From Octopus vulgaris (Eukaryota), in the NCBI GenBank assembly GCA_951406725.2, contig OX597818.1, positions 72,664,001 to 72,728,000 of the forward strand: a DNA stretch of 64,000 nt, in the 5' to 3' direction. Below, in pieces: positions 8,382-64,000 of this stretch. A program made the translations under genes and the position numbers. Each line of letters begins with the position of its first letter. Position 1 is the stretch's first letter. The notes beneath the pieces are model-generated. The model was given only the letters and a program-made list of their open reading frames with translations. It did no database searches and had not been told where the DNA came from.

Positions 8382-10060
8382 TTCAAAGTTTACATTATTT
8401 ACATTTGACGTTTCGGCTGATATACCCTCCAACCTTTACCAGATGTCTTTGGGATTATTATTATTATTATTATGCAGGTCACTGCCTGGAATGGAACTCG
8501 GAAATCTTGGGGTTAGTAGCCAGTGCTCTTAACAACTACGCCATATACCCGTGGGCAATTATGGAGTGAATTTTAGGGCTTATAAATCTAATAATTTCCT
8601 ATCTTTCCATAATACCGATTCTCATATGCTACTCATATCTGCACTCGGTCAGCTTAGAAGGTTGTTGTGTCCTAGCATATGTGCTGCTTCCTTTAGTTTC
8701 TGTATTTTCCAGAGGTGTTCTCTATCTATTATTTTAACTTCATCCCACAGGGGGAGGTGGTCTCCATTTTTCCATACATGATCATCTATACCCGATTTAT
8801 CAATATCTTCTCATGTCATAGCTTTGCGATGCTCGTCTACCCATATTTCGAGGGGGCGGCATGTTTCGCCTTTGTATAACCTACCACAACATCATGGAAT
8901 GGAGTACACGCAGCCTTTAGTATATTCTCTTCTATTGGTTTTACTTGAAGGAGATATTTGCGAAGTTGTATTACTCTTGAACACTGTCCTGATGTCATAT
9001 GGGCCGCATATCTTTTGTATCTTTTCGGAGAGGCCTTTCACATAGGGTAGACAGACTGCGGAGAGTTTATTGGCCTCATCCTCTCTTTTCTTCATAATTA
9101 GAGTGGATAGTATGTTTTGAGGGTAGTTGTTACTTAACAGATTATTACTTAGCTTCATCATTTCTTCGTGGTGGGTATCACGATCACTACTTATATTCTT
9201 TGCTCGATGTTTTAGGCACTGAGCAATCCATCTCTTTACATTGTATGGATGGTGGAAATTGAAGTTGAGGTATCTTCTAGTGAAGGTCAGCTTGTGGTAT
9301 AAGGATGATCCTAAATCCATACTTGGTGCGCGTTATTAATACGTCCAGGAATGCCAGCTGATTGTCTTTTTCCTTTTCCATTGTGAACCGTATGGATGGC
9401 TTTATTGAGTTCACATGATCTAACAGCACTTGGAAATTTTCCTGATGGGGCCAGAGTATAAATGTGTCATCAACATATCGCAGTCATAGGGTTGCTTTTA
9501 GTGATGTTGATCATAAAGCTAAATTCTCAAAGTATTCCATGTATATATTGGCTATTATCAGTGATAATGGCGAACCCATAGCTTAACCCTCTTCTTGTCG
9601 ATTTATATCCCTACTGAAGTAGGTAGTTTCTTGTGTCTGTCACTAGTTTTTCTTGCATCACCAACAGTGCTTCAACAGTTGGGACTTTGGTGAACAGACT
9701 TATCACATCTAGACTCACCATCTGGTTAGATTTAATGGGAGTATCCTTGATCAATTCGGTGAAGTCGGTGTAATTTTTCACGTACCATGTTGACATTCCT
9801 GCTAGTGGACTAATTATATCCACAAGGAACCGGCTCAGTGGATGACATGCTGAACCTCTACAGCTCACTACATGTCTTAATGGAGCTCACTATAGATCTT
9901 AGGAAGACGGTACATGTGCGATAGTTTACTGTAGTGTTGAGTCAGTTGTCTGTACTTCATTGGTATAAAGTGATCCTTGTTCTTGATGAAGATCTGTGAC
10001 GACTTCCTCTGTTTACAGAATGGGGTCTTTCTTTTCTTTGTTGTAGCTACCATCACTTAT
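8382..10060 (-). mobile_element. Decayed Penelope-like element (RT plus GIY-YIG) with terminal tRNA-like segment and degenerate hammerhead
   Basis: Motifs MVSLDVISLFTKVP, GSPLS, RYVDDTF, AFLDV, YLNFNFHHP and LPYVKGLSEKI; GIY-YIG region GCVYSIP*CCGRLYKGETCRPL; many stops and frameshifts. Confidence 0.9.
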
Positions 10061-11695: not shown

Positions 11696-11893
11696 CGGCT
11701 AGTTGTTGCGGTTTCAAAGTGACGAAAATATTTTGACACAAGTTAAATTTAAATGTTGAAGTGAATCTAACAGATTTTTGTGTGTTTTAAATGACTTATA
11801 AACAGCTTGCACACTGCCATTGTTTTTGTATCAGCAAACGATCTCAGATCAAGTCACTTGCTATATACATGTACATCTCCCTAATATATACAT

Positions 11894-11976
<83 letters not shown>

Positions 11977-16569: not shown

Positions 16570-18100
16570 ATATATATAAACAAGGTGCAAAGATAGTGAA
16601 GATTCAGTAAACACCACGTGGCAAAATTATGGTTGAAAATATGTGGAAAAAAAGTTAAAGAGAAATGCCTTCGTTTCATATAGTTTAATATGTTTTTTAT
16701 AAATATATACATATTATATGGAATATAACATGGAAAAGATACCTAGACGATTGTTTTTTCATCTAGAATGAAGCCTGTGATAAACTCCTGGATTTCAAAT
16801 CCACACTAAACAATATAAACTTCAGCATCCAATTTACAATGGAATATAGTAAGGAACAGCTCCCATTTCTGGACATTTTGATTTTTTAAAAGTCCAACAA
16901 CCAAATTGCAACCGACATTTACTACAAACTAACAGACTCAAAACATTATCTCCTTTTCAGTTCATGCCATCCTAAACACACCAAAATAAATATCCATTCA
17001 ATCTAGCAAAAAGGATCTGTATAATTGTATCTGACACAACCACTCGGGAACTTTGCCTCCAAGAACTTAAAATAACACTCATTGAACGTCAATACCCACC
17101 TACACTTATAGAACATGGAATTAAGCGTGCCAAGAAATTGGACACAAACGCACTGAGGACAACAATACAAAACACCACACCTCACCTTAAATCACTCCCA
17201 TACATATCAACCCACAACCCCAGAAACAATGAAGCATACAACACAATTATACAAAATCTCCTTCTGTTCACTCAAGACCCGAAAATGAACAACATCCTAA
17301 ATACACACAAACAACTAAAATGCAAAAGACAAGACAAATTACTCAAGAGACTCTTAACAAATGCAAACCTATACTCAATACAAACGATACCAACAGCTAA
17401 AAATGCAAACGACCTAATTGTGGTACATGTCCATACCTAGCTGAAGGCTCGGAATTCACATTCCAGCAAGGACAAATATTCTCAATTAAGACCAACTTCA
17501 TATGTGCTTCGCAGAACCTTATCTATATCCTAACCTGCTCAGATTGTGGTCACAATTATGTGGGTCAAACGAGCCTTGCTTTGAGGCGCAGAGTCACCCT
17601 ACATAAAGAATAGATTCGTTTCCTCGATACAGGCAGATAGCACTGAGCGGACATATCGACAAATGCTTAAGTAATAAAAGCCCGAACTTTCATATCTTCC
17701 CATTATACCAATGCAAAGATTCAATCTCAGTATAAGAACGCCTAAACAGGGAAAACCTGTTCATTCAAAAGTACAGACCACATCTCAATATACAAATTTG
17801 ATCATTTTAAAAATTATACTAAGGAGCCAGTTGTTCCTCTTGCCACCTGTTGTTTCCCTTGGTTCACTCTCTAGACTCATACTTCTTATTCTCCAAACAT
17901 CCAAAATGACGAGATCCCTCCGTCACGAGAACTGATTACTATACAATGTCCCTTGAAAAGCTAATTTAAATAGTGAAAACCGGTTGGATTTCACGACATC
18001 CATATAATATATATATATTTATAAAAAGATATTAAACTGTATGAAACGAAGACATTTCTCTTCCACTTTTTATAGGTTTTCCACATATTTTCAACTATAT
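16570..18100 (+). mobile_element. 5'-truncated Penelope-like element with inverted terminal copy
   Basis: IQFTME..LPFLDIL..TDIYYK.TD..YL.FSSCHPKH; GIY-YIG NLIYILTCSDCGHNYVGQT; degenerate HHR at 17949-17988. 16630-16722 is an inverted copy of about 17998-18096. Confidence 0.9.
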
Positions 18101-27035: not shown

Positions 27036-28031
27036 GTGTGTATGTGTATGTGAGTTAAAAATGACTTCAATTCCGGTGGTACCGTTTGCTGTAACTCTCT
27101 AAGTCACTTTATCATTTCACCTCTGAAATTTACAATCTCCTCAAGTATTAACATGTCATGAAGATCCACTAACCTGGAACCAAATCCCAGAAAGTCTCCA
27201 TTACACACACACACACACACACATCACACACACATCACACACACACGCACACACGTACGCGCGCGCAAACAGGGTCTTAGACAGAGATTGTATGGTACCT
27301 GTTACAAAATATCCTGGTATATTTCTCAGTTCTTTAAGCCTCCTATACACAATTCCCTTTTATGGTCACATCTATATTTCTGAAGACATTATACAAAAGA
27401 AACCCAATATATTCAAAGCCAACATATATACGTCTTTTTCCCGGACTTCGTCATTCGCTACAATGCTTCAACCCTCTCTCAGCCAGCAACTAATTGTCTA
27501 TACACTGCAGTGCTTTGATCCTCACAACAACAGTCTAGCTTTCATTCTAGCAATGTAGGTGTTCTAACACCCTTAGTCAAGTATGTGCAGTTGTCCATAT
27601 ATATATATATGTAAGCTGAATCGCAATCTAATGAACGATTTTCTTTGATATACACAAACGTATATGTATATACACATGTGTGTATGTGTGTATGCGTGTA
27701 TGTGTGTGTGTGTGCATGTGTGTGTGTGTGTGTGTGTGTACAATGCTTTCGTTTCGGCACAGCTATCCTAATAACCTGCTGTTAGAACCGCGATATCCAT
27801 ATGATTCTGAATAAAGCATTAGTCGAATACAGAGCACAATGCAAGATTAATGAAATAACACAACTTATGTACATTTGATATAGCTTAGATGGAAATCCAT
27901 TTTAAGCGTTCCTAATGAAGCAGCACATTCAGAACTGACTGCTTAGGCACACACAAGCATCACGCATATAAATGTATGTAAGTATATGTATATGCACATT
28001 AATTTCAAGCATGCTCGTTTAACCTTATTCC

Positions 28032-28105
<74 letters not shown>

Positions 28106-28700
28106 CTCTATATAACACACACATGATATCATCTGTTTAATTAAACATTATTGCGCGCGCAAACAGGGTCTTAGACAGAGATTGTATGGTACCTGTTACA
28201 AAATATCCTGGTATATTTTTCAGTTCTTTAAGCCTCCTATACACAATTCCCTTTTATGGTCACATCTATATTTCTGAACTGTGGGTAAAATAAAATACTG
28301 TAGGATCTCTTAATTATGATTTTATTCAACATATTCCCCTCTCAGATTCTCATATCCATTGCAGCCAGCAACTAATTGTCCCCTGCAGTCGATCCTCACG
28401 CGCAACACGTTCTCTGGCTCCTTCAACTGAGGTACACATTACAAGTATTCAGTTGTCACCATATTAAGTCCTCAATTTTCAGCAGCTCATATCGCAATCG
28501 ATAATGAACGAGTTTTCTTTGATATACACAAACGTATATGTCTTCCGACAATGAAGATTCATTATTTTGCACCTCCTGGAGCAGGCCTCAGCAAGACTTG
28601 AGTGGAAGAGAACTGATTGCCTATTTACGAAAAATATACGCACAGCTATCCTAATAACCTGCTGTTAGAACCGCGATATCCATATGATTCTGAATAAAGC
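26510..28700. repeat. Mosaic local duplication
   Basis: Blocks in 27250-27920 alternately match 26510-26915 and 28153-28700. Confidence 0.8.
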
Positions 28701-30950: not shown

Positions 30951-31256
30951 CACTTATATATATATATATATATTTCAACAATTGAGGGTAAAATTAATTA
31001 ATTATTAATCAATTTCACCAAGTATTCAGTATGTAAAGGGACCATTTAAGGCGAATTCAAAATATTACATTTTATAAAGGGCTTAGTAAAATAAATTACT
31101 TTGCCACATACTGAACTCATTAGAAATAGCAGCCAAAAAAATTTTTTAGCCGAATTCTAATACTTAAAGAAAATTTCTCTCAGATAGTGCTTACTCAGAA
31201 TAGCCCACGAAGGTATGGGGGTAAAAACATTAAAAAAATCACAAATGCAAAGGTTA

Positions 31257-31318
31257 TTTGAGAACGTACGTTTCTAGATCAGCCAAATACAATTCGACAT
31301 TTCTTTCGTCAGCCCAAA
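31257..31318 (-). ncRNA. Type I hammerhead ribozyme (array unit)
   Basis: TTTGGG-CTGACGA-stem II-GAAA-CGTACG-TT/CTCAAA. Confidence 0.75.
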
Positions 31319-32633
31319 ATTCCTTAATTCGGATTTGCAAACACTGAAAGTAGGAGCATACCCTTTTGGCGAATTTTCACCTCAGAAGATCCGCTCAGAC
31401 TATCAGTGCCAACAAATTCAAAATATGTAAGCGAAGAATTTCTGCCCTCCCCTTTCCACCCACGTGGTCTAATCTAGCAAACACCATAATTTTATCGGTG
31501 AAAACCGAAGCATTAAACAGAGAGAAATGAATTATAATTTCAACAATTGAGGGTAAAATTAATTAATTATTATCAATTTCACCAAGTATTCAGTATGTAA
31601 AGGGACCATTTAAGGCGAATTCAAAATATTACATTTTATAAAGGGCTTAGTAAAATAAATTACTTTGCCACATACTTTGTATTTGGCTGATCTAGAAACG
31701 TACGTTCTCAAATAACCTTTGCATTTGTGATTTTTTTAATGTTTTTACCCCCATACCTTCGTGGGCTGTTCTGAGTAAGCACTATCTGAGAGAAATTTTC
31801 TGTAAGTATTAGAATTCGGCTAAAAAACTTTTTTGGGCTGCTATTTCTAATGAGTTCAGTATGTGGCAAAGTAATTTATTTTACTAAGCCCTTTATAAAA
31901 TGTAATATTTTGAATTCGCCTTAAATGGTCCCTTTACATACTGAATACTTGGTGAAATTGATTAATAATTAATTAATTTTACCCTCAATTGTTGAAATTA
32001 TAATTCATTTCTCTCTGTTTAATGCTTCGGTTTTCACCGATAAAATTATGGTGTTTGCTAGATTAGACCACGTGGGTGGAAAGGGGAGGGCAGAAATTCT
32101 TCGCTTGCATATTTTGAATTTGTTGGCACTGATAGTCTGAGCGGATCTTCTGAGGTGAAAATTCGCCAAAAGGGTATGCTCCATACCTGAGTAAGCACTA
32201 TCTGAGAGAAATTTTCTTTAAGTATTAGAATTCGGCTAAAAAAATTTTTTGGGGCTGCTATTTCTAATGAGTTCAGTATGTGGCAAAGTAATTTATTTTA
32301 CTAAGCCCTTTATAAAATGTAATATTTTGAATTCGCCTTAAATGGTCCCTTTACATACTGAATACTTGATGAAATTGATTAATAATTAATTAATTTTACC
32401 CTCAATTGTTGAAATTATAATTCATTTCTCTCTGTTTAATGCTTCGGTTTTCACCGATAAAATTATGGTGTTTGCTAGATTAGACCACGTGGGTGGAAAG
32501 GGGAGGGCAGAAATTCTTCGCTTGCATATTTTGAATTTGTTGGCACTGATAGTCTGAGCGGATCTTCTGAGGTGAAAATTCGCCAAAAGGGTATGCTCCT
32601 ACTTTCAGTGTTTGCAAATCCGAATTAAGGAAT

Positions 32634-32695
32634 TTTGGGCTGACGAAAGAAGTGTCGAATTGTATTTGGCTGATCTAGAAACGTACGTTCTCAAA
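32634..32695 (+). ncRNA. Type I hammerhead ribozyme (array unit)
   Basis: Stem I TTTGGG/CTCAAA, core CTGACGA, stem II AGA..GTCGAAT/ATTTGGC..TCT, GAAA, palindromic stem III ACGTACGT, GUU site. Confidence 0.75.
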
Positions 32696-33200
32696 TAACC
32701 TTTGCATTTGTGATTTTTTTAATGTTTTTACCCCCATACCTTCGTGGGCTATTCTGAGTAAGCACTATCTGAGAGAAATTTTCTTTAAGTATTAGAATTC
32801 GGCTAAAAAAATTTTTTTGGGCTGCTATTTCTAATGAGTTCAGTATGTGGCAAAGTAATTTATTTTACTAAGCCCTTTATAAAATGTAATATTTTGAATT
32901 CGCCTTAAATGGTCCCTTTACATACTGAATACTTGATGAAATTGATTAATAATTAATTAATTTTACCCTCAATTGTTGAAATTATAATTCATTTCTCTCT
33001 GTTTAATGCTTCGGTTTTCACCGATAAAATTATGGTGTTTGCTAGATTAGACCACGTGGGTGGAAAGGGGAGGGCAGAAATTCTTCGCTTGCATATTTTG
33101 AATTTGTTGGCACTGATAGTCTGAGCGGATCTTCTGAGGTGAAAATTCGCCAAAAGGGTATGCTCCTACTTTCAGTGTTTGCAAATACGAATTAAGGAAT

Positions 33201-33262
33201 TTTGGGCTGACGAAAGAAATGTCGAATTGTATTTGGCTGATCTAGAAACGTACGTTCTCAAA
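33201..33262 (+). ncRNA. Type I hammerhead ribozyme (array unit)
   Basis: Same motif 567 bp downstream of the previous copy. Confidence 0.75.
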
Positions 33263-33644
33263 TAACCTTTGCATTTGTGATTTTTTTAATGTTTTTACCC
33301 CCATACCTTCGTGGGCTATTCTGAGTAAGCACTATCTGAGAGAAATTTTCTTTAAGTATTAGAATTCGGCTAAAAAAAATTTTTTTGGCTGCTATTTCTA
33401 ATGAGTTCAGTATGTGGCAAAGTAATTTATTTTACTAAGCCCTTTATAAAATGTAATATATATATATATATATATATACATACATACACACATACATATG
33501 CACATGTATGTATATATACACATATATGCATATATACACACGTACATACACATATACACACAAATACACGTTTATACACATACTCACATATACTCATACA
33601 CAAGCACACAGACACACACAAACATAAACCCATATACATGCATG

Positions 33645-35973: not shown

Positions 35974-36083
35974 TAATATACTTTATTTAAAAGCAGCAGA
36001 AATTTAACAAAAGCAGTTACTCGGAATTTCACGTTCCCTTTCGTCGGACAGTTTTGTTAAATTTCTGCTGCTTTTAAATAAAG

Positions 36084-36090
<7 letters not shown>
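35974..36090. repeat. 39-bp inverted repeat enclosing a degenerate hammerhead-like core
   Basis: 35974-36012 versus 36052-36090; the minus-strand spacer contains CCGACGA..GAAA..GTA; abuts (TA)n. Confidence 0.7.
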
Positions 36091-36884: not shown

Positions 36885-37105
36885 ACATATACGTATATAA
36901 GTATAACTACTAATACATAAATATGTATATATATGCATGAATTATATATATATATACAAAAAGCAATAAAGATTCAAGTTAATTTAAATGAATTTACTTG
37001 AATATGGTACCTAACTTAGATGCACCAAAAAAAACTATACTGATTTAACAATACAGTAATGTGGAGTGATTATAAGCGAGAATGAAGCAACAAGAATGGA
37101 TAGGT

Positions 37106-37196
37106 TTTTAGTACAATCGTTTCATACAAGGACAGGTTTTATTAAAAGTTGCAAAAATTACAGCATATAAACGTGTCCCGTACTCATCAGCTAAAA
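37106..37196 (-). ncRNA. Type I hammerhead ribozyme
   Basis: Mirror copy of 37247-37337. Confidence 0.85.
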
Positions 37197-37246
37197 TACA
37201 TGTGAGTTCTCTAGACATCCTAGGATGTCTAGAGAACTCACATGTA

Positions 37247-37337
37247 TTTTAGCTGATGAGTACGGGACACGTTTATATGCTGTAATTTTTGCAACTTTTA
37301 ATAAAACCTGTCCTTGTATGAAACGATTGTACTAAAA
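37247..37337 (+). ncRNA. Type I hammerhead ribozyme with extended stem II
   Basis: TTTTAG-CTGATGA-GTACGGGACA..TGTCCTTGTAT-GAAA-C-GATT-G-TA/CTAAAA: canonical core, GUA site, 6-bp stem I. Confidence 0.85.
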
Positions 37338-37368
37338 ACCTATCCATTCTTGTTGCTTCATTCTCGCT

Positions 37369-37404
<36 letters not shown>

Positions 37405-45109: not shown

Positions 45110-45150
<41 letters not shown>

Positions 45151-45154
<4 letters not shown>

Positions 45155-45320
45155 TATATAGAATAGTTATACAGGACTAGTACTGTTTCATGAAACAGTA
45201 CTAGTCCTGTATGGAAGCTCCTTCTATATAATAAATTAATTTTACTCTGCTATGTATTGAGTACCTTACTTACTGTGGTTAACCCCGAATCAACCCGGGA
45301 CCTACAAATGACTGAAACAA

Positions 45321-49056: not shown

Positions 49057-49282
49057 AGAGTAGCAGAAGCCTGCTAGCTGCAGATATCTGTCTCGACTTG
49101 GTGATCAGTGAATAAACTTCACTGATAATTATATATATATATTTACGAAGTCGAGACAGATATCTGCAGCTAGCAGGCTTCTGCTACTCTAGACCGATGA
49201 TGGGCAAAGACCCTGAAACATGCGTGTCTCTAGATGCAGGCCTAGCTGTTGGGGGTATTTGTCTCCCCTTCGTAAATATATA
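49057..49282. mobile_element. Inverted insertion of a circularly permuted hammerhead element of about 171 nt
   Basis: Inverted repeats 49057-49099/49148-49190 and 49136-49150/49268-49282. Confidence 0.8.
49188..49234 (+). ncRNA. Type I hammerhead ribozyme (CCGA core variant)
   Basis: TCTAGA-CCGATGA-TGGG..CCCT-GAAA-CATGCGTG-TC/TCTAGA, GUC site. Confidence 0.75.
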
Positions 49283-49387: not shown

Positions 49388-49428
<41 letters not shown>

Positions 49429-49429
<1 letters not shown>

Positions 49430-50714
49430 GAGGGGCGTTCAATAAGTAATGCCCCTGACCCACTTCCCATACCAGTAGAGCAATGGACTTGGCACAGTTA
49501 TTAGTCTTTTTCTACATAGGAACCACTCAGAGTTAGGCATTTCACCCATCGTTTGATCCAGCTCTGGAGACCGTTTTTGTAAAAGACTCCAGCTTGGTCC
49601 TCCATCCACGACGTGACTTTAGAAATCAAGGCTGCATCATCTGGGAAATGCTTTCCTTTCAAAAACAACTTCATGGCTGGGAAGAGGTGAAAATCAGAGG
49701 GTGCAATGTCAGGAGAGTAGGGGGATGGAGGAGGAGTTCATAGCCGCACGCCTGTGCTTCTGATCTGGCGACACGCGAGTTGTGAACCGGAGCGTTGTCC
49801 TGCAGGAGGAGGATACCTTCGCTGATCTTGCCCCGCCTTTTGATTTTGATAGCTTCTCTTAATTTCCTCAAAAGTGAAGCATAATAGGCACCTGTAATTG
49901 TGGTACCCTTTGCCAGGAAATCTGTCATCACTACTCCGTCCTGGTCCCAGAAGACTGTGAGCATGACCTTGCCAGCAGAGGGCTGCACCCTTGTCTTCTT
50001 TGGAGGAGGTGAGTCACGGTGCTTCCACTGCATTGACTGGGCTTTGGTCTCTGGATCATAGTGATGAACCCAGGTTTCATCCTGTGTAATCAGTCTTTTG
50101 AAAAAGTTTGACTCATCTTGGTACGTCTCGAAATTCATCCTCGAGCATTCGACGCGTTCTTGCTTCTGGAAAAGTGTGAGCAGCCTAGGAATCCATCTGA
50201 CAGACACCTTTTGGATATGCAAATGGTCATGAATGATAGTTTCCACTGACCCGGTACTAATCTTGACCTCATGGGCTATTTGGCGAATAGTTATGCGTCG
50301 ATCTTCCAAAATGGCAGCCTCAACTTGACGGACAGATGCCTCATCAATGGCAGAAGTGGGGCGACCAGATCTGGGAGCTGTTTCCACAGAGTTCCGACCA
50401 TGTTTGAATTCAAGATGCCAGCGTTTTACAAGGTCATATGATGGGGCATCATCACCATAAGTTACTTTCATTTCATCAAAGTCTCCCGTGGTGTGCGTCC
50501 TTTCAAATACAAAAACCGGATCACTGCTCGACACTCAACAGGCTCCATTTCACACTTGATTCAGTTCAAACACCTGTAGATCAGAAACCATAAGCAGTTG
50601 AGAGCTGTAATTTGCCACCTAATCTATAAAGATATAAGTAATTGCACATGCAAAATTTCAACTAGATCAAACACCTGGAAGTGGGTCAGAGGCATTACTT
50701 ATTGAACGTCCCAC

Positions 50715-50715
<1 letters not shown>
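49429..50715 (-). mobile_element. Full-length mariner transposon (1287 bp), irritans-like
   Basis: TIRs of about 39 bp (CGAGGGGCGTTCAATAAGTAATGCCCCTGACCCACTTCC, 3 mismatches), TA target inside (TA)n, transposase on the minus strand. Confidence 0.95.
49501..50548 (-). pseudogene. Mariner DD34D transposase (about 349 aa) with two single-base frameshifts
   Basis: MEPVECRAVIRFL.., WIPRLL, ITQDETWV, QDNAPVH and YSPDIAPSD, with 34 residues between the second and third Asp after correction. Confidence 0.92.
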
Positions 50716-50766
<51 letters not shown>

Positions 50767-61611: not shown

Positions 61612-62572
61612 GCCATTTTCGCATGAATATTATACGTTTTCAACATACTCCATTATAATTTTTAGCAAATATTTTATCAGAACTAGAAACTGACAGAATT
61701 ACATGCTGCTATTTCTGTAGCAGAATGAACTTAGAGACGAAATAACCCAACTATAATCTGGATTGGTAGGAGAGAATAACAGTGTGGTCATGAGATGGCA
61801 ATATAGCTACAAAGTTTATTTATCTCCTTATCACCATCAAAAGATCTAATGCAGCTAGTATACTACGTCCACTAAGAGTTAAAACCACTGGGAATTGACA
61901 GTTAAGTTCTATCTGCTGATAAATTCATTAATGTCAGATACTCTCCTAAACCCCTAATTTACTATGGCCATAAATTCCCTATGATCACATAAAGAAACAA
62001 ATCCCAGAAGTCAGTAAGATAATGGAAAATGCCCAGAAAAGGGAGGGTGGGGTGACATATTATCAGTTAAAGTGGTCTAAAATAGAAAACAAAGGACATC
62101 ACAATGAGATCTAAATGGACATTAAGTGTACGGGGCAATGAATGACAAAATTAATATAGTGTTATTCAATTTTGTATAATAGAAACTAAATTTTTAAACA
62201 TTTAGAAAGGGATATGAGGACCAGATTAGATATGAAGGATATATAAAAAGGATATATAAACCAGTTTAAGCCCTAAAAAAGTAGATTACATTTATATAAA
62301 ATAGAAGCTTCATAATACTTCATCCTAGCGAACTTTAAGCTGGTCATGTTGAAACCATTTAAGCAATGAGCCCAGATTCCATTCAGAATTCATCCGAGAA
62401 AGAGGTAGACATTATCTATTGACTGAAAATCAAGGATCAAAGATGAAAAAATGAGATCATTGTTTCTATGCCAGATAAAATTATTTAAAAAATATGATTG
62501 TATAAAAATTCCAGCATTTAAGAAATATCCTAAAGGATGTAAGGATATAAGGAAATATAAAAAAATATGGCC

Positions 62573-62620
<48 letters not shown>

Positions 62621-63376
62621 ATTCTAGCACACGATCTCAGATCAAGTCACTCGCTATGCAAGTACATCTCCGTAATATATATATACGCAAAAATATCATA
62701 TATGTATATATGTATATATGAAGAATATATTATAATTACAAAATGTAATTATAAATAACTAAAAAATATACATGTAACTACCATACTGTATTATATCTTA
62801 CCTTGCTTAACTGCAGAGAAACGTTACAACCCCTCTGCAAATCATAGAATGTTACAGTATATACGATTTTAAATAGGTATACAAAATGCAAAATTCAATA
62901 ATATAATATACGGTGATTACACCGTTTTTCCTTCAATTCCAAGATTTCCGCCCTATCAGTCAGAATAGGTATAACTAGGATGTGATATCAGATAGCACGC
63001 CTCCGTCAGGAATGCTCAATACCCACTAGGAACAATATAATTCTACATACAACTATGCTTGCGATACTATATTTTATAAAACCACATCCAATAGTATTCT
63101 CATCTTACTTTATTTCTTAATTTACTTTGTTTGGTAAACCGCGACCTATTCTTATTATTATTTTATTTTATTATTTTCTTTTTTTAATTTTTTCTTACTA
63201 TTCTTATTTCTATTTTTGTCTTTTTTCTCTCCTTATATCCAGTGTGCTTCTTATGGCTTCGACAGTGAAAAGAGTTTTTGACCTTATATTCATTATTTAT
63301 GTCTGTTTTATCATTTCATAAATGCCTTATATACACACACACACACACACATATATATGTATACATACATATATAT

Positions 63377-64000
63377 ATAGGCCATTCGACTCACTAAAAC
63401 GAGCAGCCAAACTCAAACCGCTAAATAGTAGTAATTCAGAAATCAAAGGAAAATTAAAAACATTTACCCTTATCATCTTTGGACTATGCATAGTTTCGAC
63501 GTACATTTTGGCAAACCAGCTTAATTAAATTAAATTTAATTTAATTAAATCAATTTACCACTGGCCCGTCTCATCGGCAAAGAAGCCAGGGGGAATATAT
63601 ATTCCACGAGGCAACAGCATCGATGCCGTTTTAATTTTAATTTTAGGCCATTTTAATTTTCCTTTGATTTCTGAATTACTACTATTTAGCGGTTTGAGTT
63701 TGGCTGCTCGTTTTAGTGAGTCGAATGGCCTATCAAGGCCATTCCTTAATATTATTGTTGAATGTACATTATATAGTCTGTTGACTATTTTTTTTTCTCA
63801 CTAGACCGCTGGTGGCGAAAAAGTTTCTCTTGAATTTTTGCTACCCTGATATTGATTAATTAATGAATATTTGGCTAATTCTGAAATTAAATCAGCAGTT
63901 TATATTTGCTGCTGATAAGTTGGCGCGATGACGGTAGATTTTGAAAGTTTAGAGTATATATTCCCGAGGCATCGATGCTGTTGCCTCGTGGAATATATAT
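63377..64000. mobile_element. Inverted insertion of a circularly permuted hammerhead element of about 485 nt (reaches window edge)
   Basis: Interleaved inverted repeats 63377-63459/63651-63733 and 63595-63627/63968-64000; starts at (TA)n. Confidence 0.8.
63477..63582 (-). ncRNA. Type I hammerhead ribozyme (CCGA core variant, long stem II insert)
   Basis: CTTTG-CCGATGA-GACG..CGTC-GAAA-CTATGCATAG-TC/CAAAG; palindromic stem III ACTATGCATAGT, GUC site. Confidence 0.85.

Follow-up and report, generated by a model that had tools for sequence, protein, structure and literature searches.

A head-to-head insertion of a 485-nt hammerhead-bearing repeat beside a (TA)n microsatellite in Octopus vulgaris

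The window analysed here is a 64,000-nt stretch of the Octopus vulgaris genome, and two partial copies of a 485-nt non-coding unit with a type I hammerhead motif lie at its right end. The features of this locus are as follows.

63330..63379, no strand: (CA)n/(TA)n microsatellite at the left end, the likely insertion target
63377..63627, minus: inverted partial copy (B, hammerhead, A; 251 nt), with its 3' end at 63377
63377..63459, minus: arm A, 83 nt, exact reverse complement of A'
63476..63583, minus: type I hammerhead motif from the descriptor scan
63502..63566, minus: loop II, 65 nt, with a hairpin of 10 + 13 bp and an AT-only top
63595..63627, minus: arm B, 33 nt, 5' end of the inverted copy, breaking inside a long predicted hairpin of the unit
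63628..63650, no strand: head-to-head junction, 23 nt, outside the unit, with short echoes of neighbouring element sequence
63651..64000, plus: direct unit copy (A', X, B'), running off the window
63723..63744, plus: 9-bp hairpin across the A'/X border, a putative internal RT start site
63734..63967, plus: X, 234 nt, occurring once here, structured and non-coding
63968..64000, plus: arm B', exact reverse complement of B, cut by the window end

Arm A (63377-63459) and A' (63651-63733) are 100% complementary over 83 nt, and arm B (63595-63627) is 100% complementary over 33 nt to B' (63968-64000), which is cut by the window end, whereas 500 shuffled versions of the region contained no exact inverted match above 18 nt. 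These arms bear out the interleaved order A, hammerhead, B, A', X, B' given in the earlier note. Read on the minus strand from 63627 to 63377, the inverted copy has the order B, hammerhead, A, and the direct copy at 63651..64000 has the order A', X, B' on the plus strand. The two copies point away from a 23-nt spacer (63628-63650) that is not part of the unit, in a head-to-head arrangement. Pieces of 168 and 317 nt close on themselves into a cyclic unit of 485 nt; this closure had been proposed before, and the arms in the window plus the contig joins described below confirmed it. The inverted copy ends in the 4-nt loop of the 9-bp hairpin, with the cut site of the hammerhead 105 nt upstream of this end, and the B hairpin is bracketed by a short direct repeat. 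The microsatellite abuts the left end, and the last 3 letters of arm A are common to the TA run; the (TA)n target is seen at the left end, the right end and any target duplication lying past the window. A reading as a DNA transposon (MITE) was rejected because the inverted repeats are interleaved and not terminal. An identical 9-letter match to the 3' end of arm A also precedes a TA run 800 nt upstream (62567-62575). Among 184 TA-run starts, the arm-A 6-mer occurs at that position and at the element and nowhere else, with no longer likeness, and the upstream match is perhaps due to chance or a tiny truncated copy.

Part of the stretch was found in 20 public sequencing runs from 10 studies with four organism labels; three of the 20 runs contain half or more of the sampled words, and one of them all may be the window's own source. 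We compared contigs on 63460-63967 from four of the 20 runs (X2, X3, X4 and X10), leaving out runs with a small share, and aligned 667, 495, 248 and 114 family contigs, respectively. The X-to-B join, which appears as a joint between 63627 and 63967 on opposite strands, was present in all four runs (2, 1, 2 and 2 contigs), with a depth of 726, 347, 57 and 14 at the joint as against 68, 54, 0 and 0 over the bin of the spacer. In X4, one contig extends for 43 letters or more to either side of this joint. Among the loose ends listed, 21, 17, 7 and 6 contigs break off before 63651, and the consensus before A matches the 3' end of the hammerhead by eye in 25 of 30 letters in X2, 22 of 30 in X4 and 16 of 30 in X3; the match in X10 is less clear (consensus agreement of 0.51-0.65 among the loose ends listed). 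The X-to-B join in four of four runs, together with the hammerhead letters before A, indicates that the 485-nt cyclic unit is a repeat family and not a local rearrangement of a linear element, which the earlier note had tied to copies lacking these adjacencies. Every join of the unit cycle was seen in the window or in the contigs, consistent with a multi-copy head-to-tail family. The predicted continuation of B' into the hammerhead past the window end was found in part: one X4 contig reads at least 10 letters into it, as a contig of the family and not of this locus. No contig of the four runs spans the whole stretch, and two complete tandem hammerheads were seen neither in the window, which ends before the second motif, nor in the short contigs, which lack 63460-63559. 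None of the public runs is listed as RNA; X10 may be an RNA run.

The contigs also revealed variation within the family. Joints between 63591 and 63967 in X4 and between 63591 and 63963 in X10 lead from X straight into the hammerhead and skip the B hairpin, which points to a likely shorter form of the unit. Positions 63710 and 63713 differ from this locus in about 90% of the X2 depth, the minority letter being present in both arms here; these common minority letters and the 100% identity of the arms indicate one young event from one source copy. In one X2 contig, 63791 is joined to 63921 on opposite strands, and in one X3 contig 63627 is joined to 63760 with four letters between; both may be other inverted junctions, and the second may alternatively be an allele of this locus. 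In 9 contigs of X2 and 8 of X3, the loose ends listed behind 63748 change to TA-rich letters about 28 nt further on, and similar letters in X4 continue into unit sequence. A second 3' end about 28 nt on, comparable to a PLE 'tail', is only suggested by these ends, which may instead mark a subfamily variant. The loose ends listed behind 63919 carry about 76-109 letters of other sequence in X4 and X10. Summed contig depth, which is not a copy number, peaks over A' and again near 63885-63918.

A hammerhead descriptor scan of both strands of the window gave three hits, one of them in the 485-nt unit, and no hit of equal quality was obtained from 40 shuffled 64-kb windows (one of 40 at a looser threshold). 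The motif is of type I with a complete topology on the minus strand (63583-63476). Stem I has 6 bp (63583-63578/63481-63476), the core at 63577-63571 reads CCGAUGA with C replacing the conserved U4, and stem II has 4 bp (63570-63567/63501-63498), followed by GAAA at 63497-63494. Stem III (63494-63483) consists of 4 bp plus the A15.1-U16.1 pair and forms a 12-nt palindrome, and the GUC cut site lies after 63482. Loop II (65 nt) holds a 23-bp hairpin of 10 + 13 bp. The hammerheads of the unit occur in one polarity only. When isolated, the motif takes the hammerhead fold within 0.6 kcal/mol of the minimum, and inside the circular unit the same fold lies 5.8 kcal/mol above the best fold. The stem III palindrome permits a 12-bp intermolecular dimer duplex with a predicted energy of -15.9 kcal/mol, and the dimer is the form described for animal hammerheads (PMC4209133). 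Stems I to III, the GUC site and a hairpin insert in stem II are thus present as the earlier note had described them, whereas its term 'well-formed' may not apply in the catalytic sense, given the U4C core and the cost of the fold in the circle. With U4C and the 65-nt loop II the motif is not canonical, and the insert is AT-only just at its top.

A U4C variant was reported to have considerably lowered activity in vitro and still to permit viroid infection (PMC3088659). Across 63560-63627, no other letter is listed at 10% or more in the contigs of the four runs; C4 may be family-wide, an unlisted letter being no proof of absence. The hammerhead's 3' half (63460-63559) was left out of the contig comparison, and GAAA, stem III and the cut site were seen there via loose ends only. 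Rfam gave no match at the gathering score in the whole window and, for the element at E up to 10, 12 matches that were all far below the cut-offs, none of them a hammerhead. The U4C core and the long loop II escape Rfam, and such families are therefore easily missed in annotation. The 21-nt core motif had 3 metagenome, 0 viral and 3 prokaryote hits in sequence collections; these six were dismissed as chance since all match for 21-25 nt only.

The 485-nt unit has a GC content of 34.8%, and its longest Met-started frame is 66 aa; no RT or GIY-YIG ORF was found in the unit or near the locus. Its predicted circular fold has an energy of -152.4 kcal/mol, compared with -100.6 ± 5.6 kcal/mol for shuffles (z of -9.3; 0 of 40 shuffles as low), is 70.5% paired and is branched rather than rod-like. 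The antisense strand also folds well (z of -7.0, 25 shuffles). Among the 25 variant sites of the family, 12 are unpaired in the predicted fold, 7 keep a pair and 6 break one; the 6 breaks against 8.0 expected (P of 0.19) gave no sign of covariation, and none of the changes is compensatory. The fold is thus predicted to be strong, and the variants give no support for selection on it. A Pol III A/B-box scan allowing one mismatch yielded scattered hits and no ordered pair.

The window is AT-rich, with a GC content mostly of 27-41% and 141 microsatellite rows, and contains fragments of a mariner-type transposase, of a LINE-type zinc finger and of a Penelope-like element (PLE). Three of its other insertions resemble the locus in layout.

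30967-33459: head-to-head insertion of a 567-nt unit, inverted plus direct tandem copies, with a type I hammerhead-like motif
36957-37370: 151-bp perfect palindrome, each arm carrying a type I hammerhead of canonical core with a GUA site
about 16570-18100: decayed 5'-truncated Penelope-like element with RT end, cysteine linker and GIY-YIG, several frameshifts and stops

The 567-nt insertion comprises about 1.25 inverted units and about 3 direct units with an internal skip, 98-99% identical, and both of its ends lie on TA runs, 94 nt apart in unit coordinates. In its hammerhead-like motif, stem II has an A.A pair at its base and the site is GUU. The palindrome has a 60-nt stem II region; its two ends are unequal and lie on TA runs at distances of 39 and 155 nt from the cut site. 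Frames of the PLE remnant showed 51-70% identity to a protein with RT and GIY-YIG, with GIY-YIG and RT Pfam scores just below the cut-offs; a cysteine linker before the nuclease has been described for Neptune and Nematis (PMC8557442). This remnant has TA runs at both ends and an inverted copy of its 3' end at its 5' side, the left arm of which is about 50 nt longer than the right end. Four unrelated elements of the window accordingly have the head-to-head layout at TA runs, some with diverged arms. The earlier note had stated that the architecture is like that of other hammerhead families, and the two hammerhead insertions, both head-to-head in TA runs, agree with this. It had also called the sequence unrelated to families of 171 and 566 nt; this holds for the two other hammerhead insertions, the longer family being found as the 567-nt one, whereas a 171-nt period was not identified. 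Between the unit and these two insertions, only a 28-33-nt AT-rich hairpin is alike (scores of 33 and 32, with 2 and 1 of 100 shuffles as high), and no likeness beyond AT-rich hairpins was detected to the 567-nt family, the 37-kb family or the PLE remnant. Against the ends of the remnant, the one PLE compared, 36 of 100 shuffles scored as high.

Further observations were made in the window. All three hammerhead families, unrelated to each other, are extended in the stem II region (31, 60 and 73 nt), and their stem III is a full or near palindrome; this may be a design of the whole lineage that short-loop descriptors miss. At 62618-62690 and 11833-11908, sequences of 60-75 nt between or before TA runs are 83% alike and are perhaps very short 3' ends of another TA-targeting element. 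Short palindromic inserts lie beside or contain TA runs at 35974-36090, 45149-45236 and 49057-49190, and a weak RT-like piece lies at 9328-9600 on the minus strand. The mariner-type element at 49393-50751 has 75-nt inverted ends (96%) and a 287-aa frame matching Transposase_1 (E of 2.9e-25). A mosaic at 28153-28700, within 27259-28700, consists of near-exact 58-126 nt copies of sequence 900-1000 nt upstream.

Tandemly arranged short units that carry type I hammerheads are known as non-LTR retrozymes (PMC7229834), which have been argued to be non-autonomous PLE derivatives (10.64898/2026.07.22.740005). In PLE insertions, a partial tandem lies next to an inverted copy that is truncated at its 5' end, a tail of 30-40 bp is often present, and (TA)n is favoured as target (PMC8557442); head-to-head is the commonest inverted form (PMC3846280). 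The layout at the locus matches this signature, with an inverted 5'-truncated copy next to a direct copy and (TA)n at the left end, and the PLE remnant of the same layout and the two other hammerhead insertions in TA runs support the PLE reading. The reading we prefer, with a rough probability of 0.55, is that a PLE acting in trans inserted two partial copies of a non-autonomous non-LTR retrozyme head-to-head, with an uncut tandem transcript as template. That the unit is a PLE-dependent retrozyme, whether its template was a tandem transcript or a circle, is highly probable.

In the mechanism we propose, tandem copies of the unit would be transcribed into a longer-than-unit structured RNA, and a PLE protein would bind this transcript and nick both strands of an AT-rich target. 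Reverse transcription would start inside the RNA, at the hairpin about 105 nt downstream of the ribozyme site and not at the ribozyme cut, the PLE reverse transcriptase and GIY-YIG nuclease serving to copy the unit into the (TA)n run. Two 5'-truncated cDNAs could then be joined via short template jumps, which may have left the 23-nt spacer. The anole PLE offers a parallel: its reverse transcription starts within its RNA in a stem-loop (PMC11167929), 85-92 nt downstream of the hammerhead cut site by our own subtraction from the positions +26 and +111-118 given there, and its protein cuts and extends both strands of AT-rich DNA (PMC11167929). The odd joints in the X2 and X3 contigs suggest other breakpoints. 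Several observations count against the PLE reading, namely the seeming lack of a sequence link between the unit and the one PLE remnant compared, the U4C core, the variants that do not favour the predicted fold and the antisense strand that also folds well. Among frog retrozymes, 8 of 9 predicted ones showed no cleavage in vitro (10.64898/2026.07.22.740005).

The main rival keeps the family and the PLE helper but takes as template a closed 485-nt RNA circle produced by hammerhead cleavage and host ligation, as in the earlier note and the published retrozyme model. Abundant circular RNAs are expressed from the retrozymes of coral, mussel and axolotl (PMC7229834). The 485-nt unit has a strong predicted fold in circular form, its isolated motif takes a near-minimum hammerhead fold, and the dimer duplex offered by stem III is the known active form. 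However, the core is U4C, PLE insertion in vitro uses unprocessed RNA and was equally good with a dead hammerhead in the anole system (PMC11167929), and the DNA would be identical under the two templates. The 'circular permutation' at the locus can arise without an RNA circle, since the same DNA results when a tandem transcript is read from internal sites. We favour the uncut tandem transcript by about two to one and consider the circle a possible but rather unlikely template. It is a good deal less probable that the unit is a solo PLE pseudo-LTR amplified at the DNA level as a tandem repeat and inverted by a later local rearrangement. A local-amplification origin was proposed in the discussion of 10.64898/2026.07.22.740005, and tandem order in contigs is expected under it too, but the left end coincides exactly with a TA run, the two arms do not differ, and head-to-head layouts at TA runs in four unrelated elements of the window are not expected from chance inversion.

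That the pieces are terminal repeats of a longer, possibly autonomous PLE with its coding body past 64000 is also improbable: A'-X-B'-hammerhead-A closes on itself in the contigs with no room for an ORF, although the right end lies outside the view and the loose ends behind 63919 in X4 and X10 leave space for longer relatives. We give very little weight to an endogenised viroid-like or virus-satellite RNA circle. The unit is small, structured, hammerhead-bearing and non-coding as such an RNA would be, but it has one ribozyme polarity, a branched fold, the behaviour of a genomic repeat in DNA-type runs and 0 hits in viral contigs. An assembly fold-back chimera could account for the perfect arms and for the lack of a contig spanning the whole stretch, but it is just as hard to credit, as the arms are interleaved around a 23-nt non-unit spacer unlike a simple fold-back, the spacer bin is covered by contigs in X2 and X3 (68 and 54; none in X4 and X10), and other window insertions share the plan with diverged arms.

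The architecture itself, a head-to-head plus partial-tandem PLE layout, is already published (PMC8557442, PMC3846280). We regard the 485-nt family as a real, young and multi-copy member of the known non-LTR retrozyme or non-autonomous PLE kind with an unusual hammerhead. Our literature search, which reached few subscription journals and had supplements outside its scope, found no paper on the 485-nt family or on head-to-head retrozyme insertions, and a cephalopod-directed search found no hammerhead report. A broader idea, which we put forward as doubtful, is that several unrelated retrozyme families of this genome were inserted head-to-head into (TA)n, their 3' ends lying at internal hairpins at a distance of 39-298 nt from the ribozyme site, as a footprint of PLE trans-mobilisation without cleavage or circle, and that the 485-nt hammerhead is perhaps damped family-wide and kept as a protein-binding or protein-switched fold. 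If true, this would provide direct footprint evidence that PLE proteins move animal retrozymes in trans by internal initiation, and the 485-nt unit would be a minimal PLE cargo RNA with which to study the formation of the inverted structure. The retrozyme-PLE link has so far been proposed from ribozymes in common, co-occurrence and homology (PMC7229834; 10.64898/2026.07.22.740005), with 24 of 57 frog retrozyme families matching a TE (10.64898/2026.07.22.740005), and insertion geometry is a different line of evidence for it. The locus by itself changes little, its kind being known; its value is that of a test case, as the young non-coding unit is a small substrate for studying head-to-head formation and the need for hammerhead cutting.

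Compared with metazoan non-LTR retrozymes (PMC7229834; 10.64898/2026.07.22.740005), the unit is alike in being short, AT-rich, non-coding and tandem-ordered, with one type I hammerhead, a palindromic stem III, strong self-pairing and co-occurrence with PLEs. Those retrozymes have no PBS or PPT, as far as the available texts describe them, and a target duplication of >4 bp when present. The length of 485 nt exceeds the 150-450 bp of PMC7229834 and falls within the 51-972 bp of 10.64898/2026.07.22.740005. The U4C core and the 65-nt loop II differ, and the hammerhead is predicted to be masked in the 485-nt circle, unlike most animal retrozymes. The insertion here is head-to-head at (TA)n, whereas the main texts of these two papers discuss neither inverted insertions nor microsatellite targets (the main text of PMC7229834 has 0 occurrences of 'inverted' and 'microsatellite', and that of 10.64898/2026.07.22.740005 has none in the insertion sense).

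EN-bearing PLEs (Neptune, Penelope/Poseidon and Naiad; PMC8557442, PMC3846280, PMC11167929) share with the locus the head-to-head partial tandem with an inverted 5'-truncated copy, the AT-rich or (TA)n target, the hammerhead near the 3' end and an end away from the ribozyme site; the unit differs in having no RT or GIY-YIG ORF and no sequence link found to a PLE. Chlamys non-autonomous PLEs such as MRC1 (PMC8557442) are likewise non-coding PLE parasites with pseudo-LTRs and multicopy head-to-tail insertions, but they are algal, helper-like at the 3' end and of a clade described in the available text of that paper as being without canonical hammerheads. The pseudo-LTR hammerheads of Schistosoma PLEs (PMC4209133), which form opposite-strand pairs 100-700 bp apart, resemble the locus in being of type I, with a palindromic helix III, dimer dependence and placement on opposite strands. 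They are minimal motifs with a helix II of 7-8 bp, whereas the 485-nt unit combines helices I (6 bp) and II (4 bp) of canonical length with a long insert and a U4C core.
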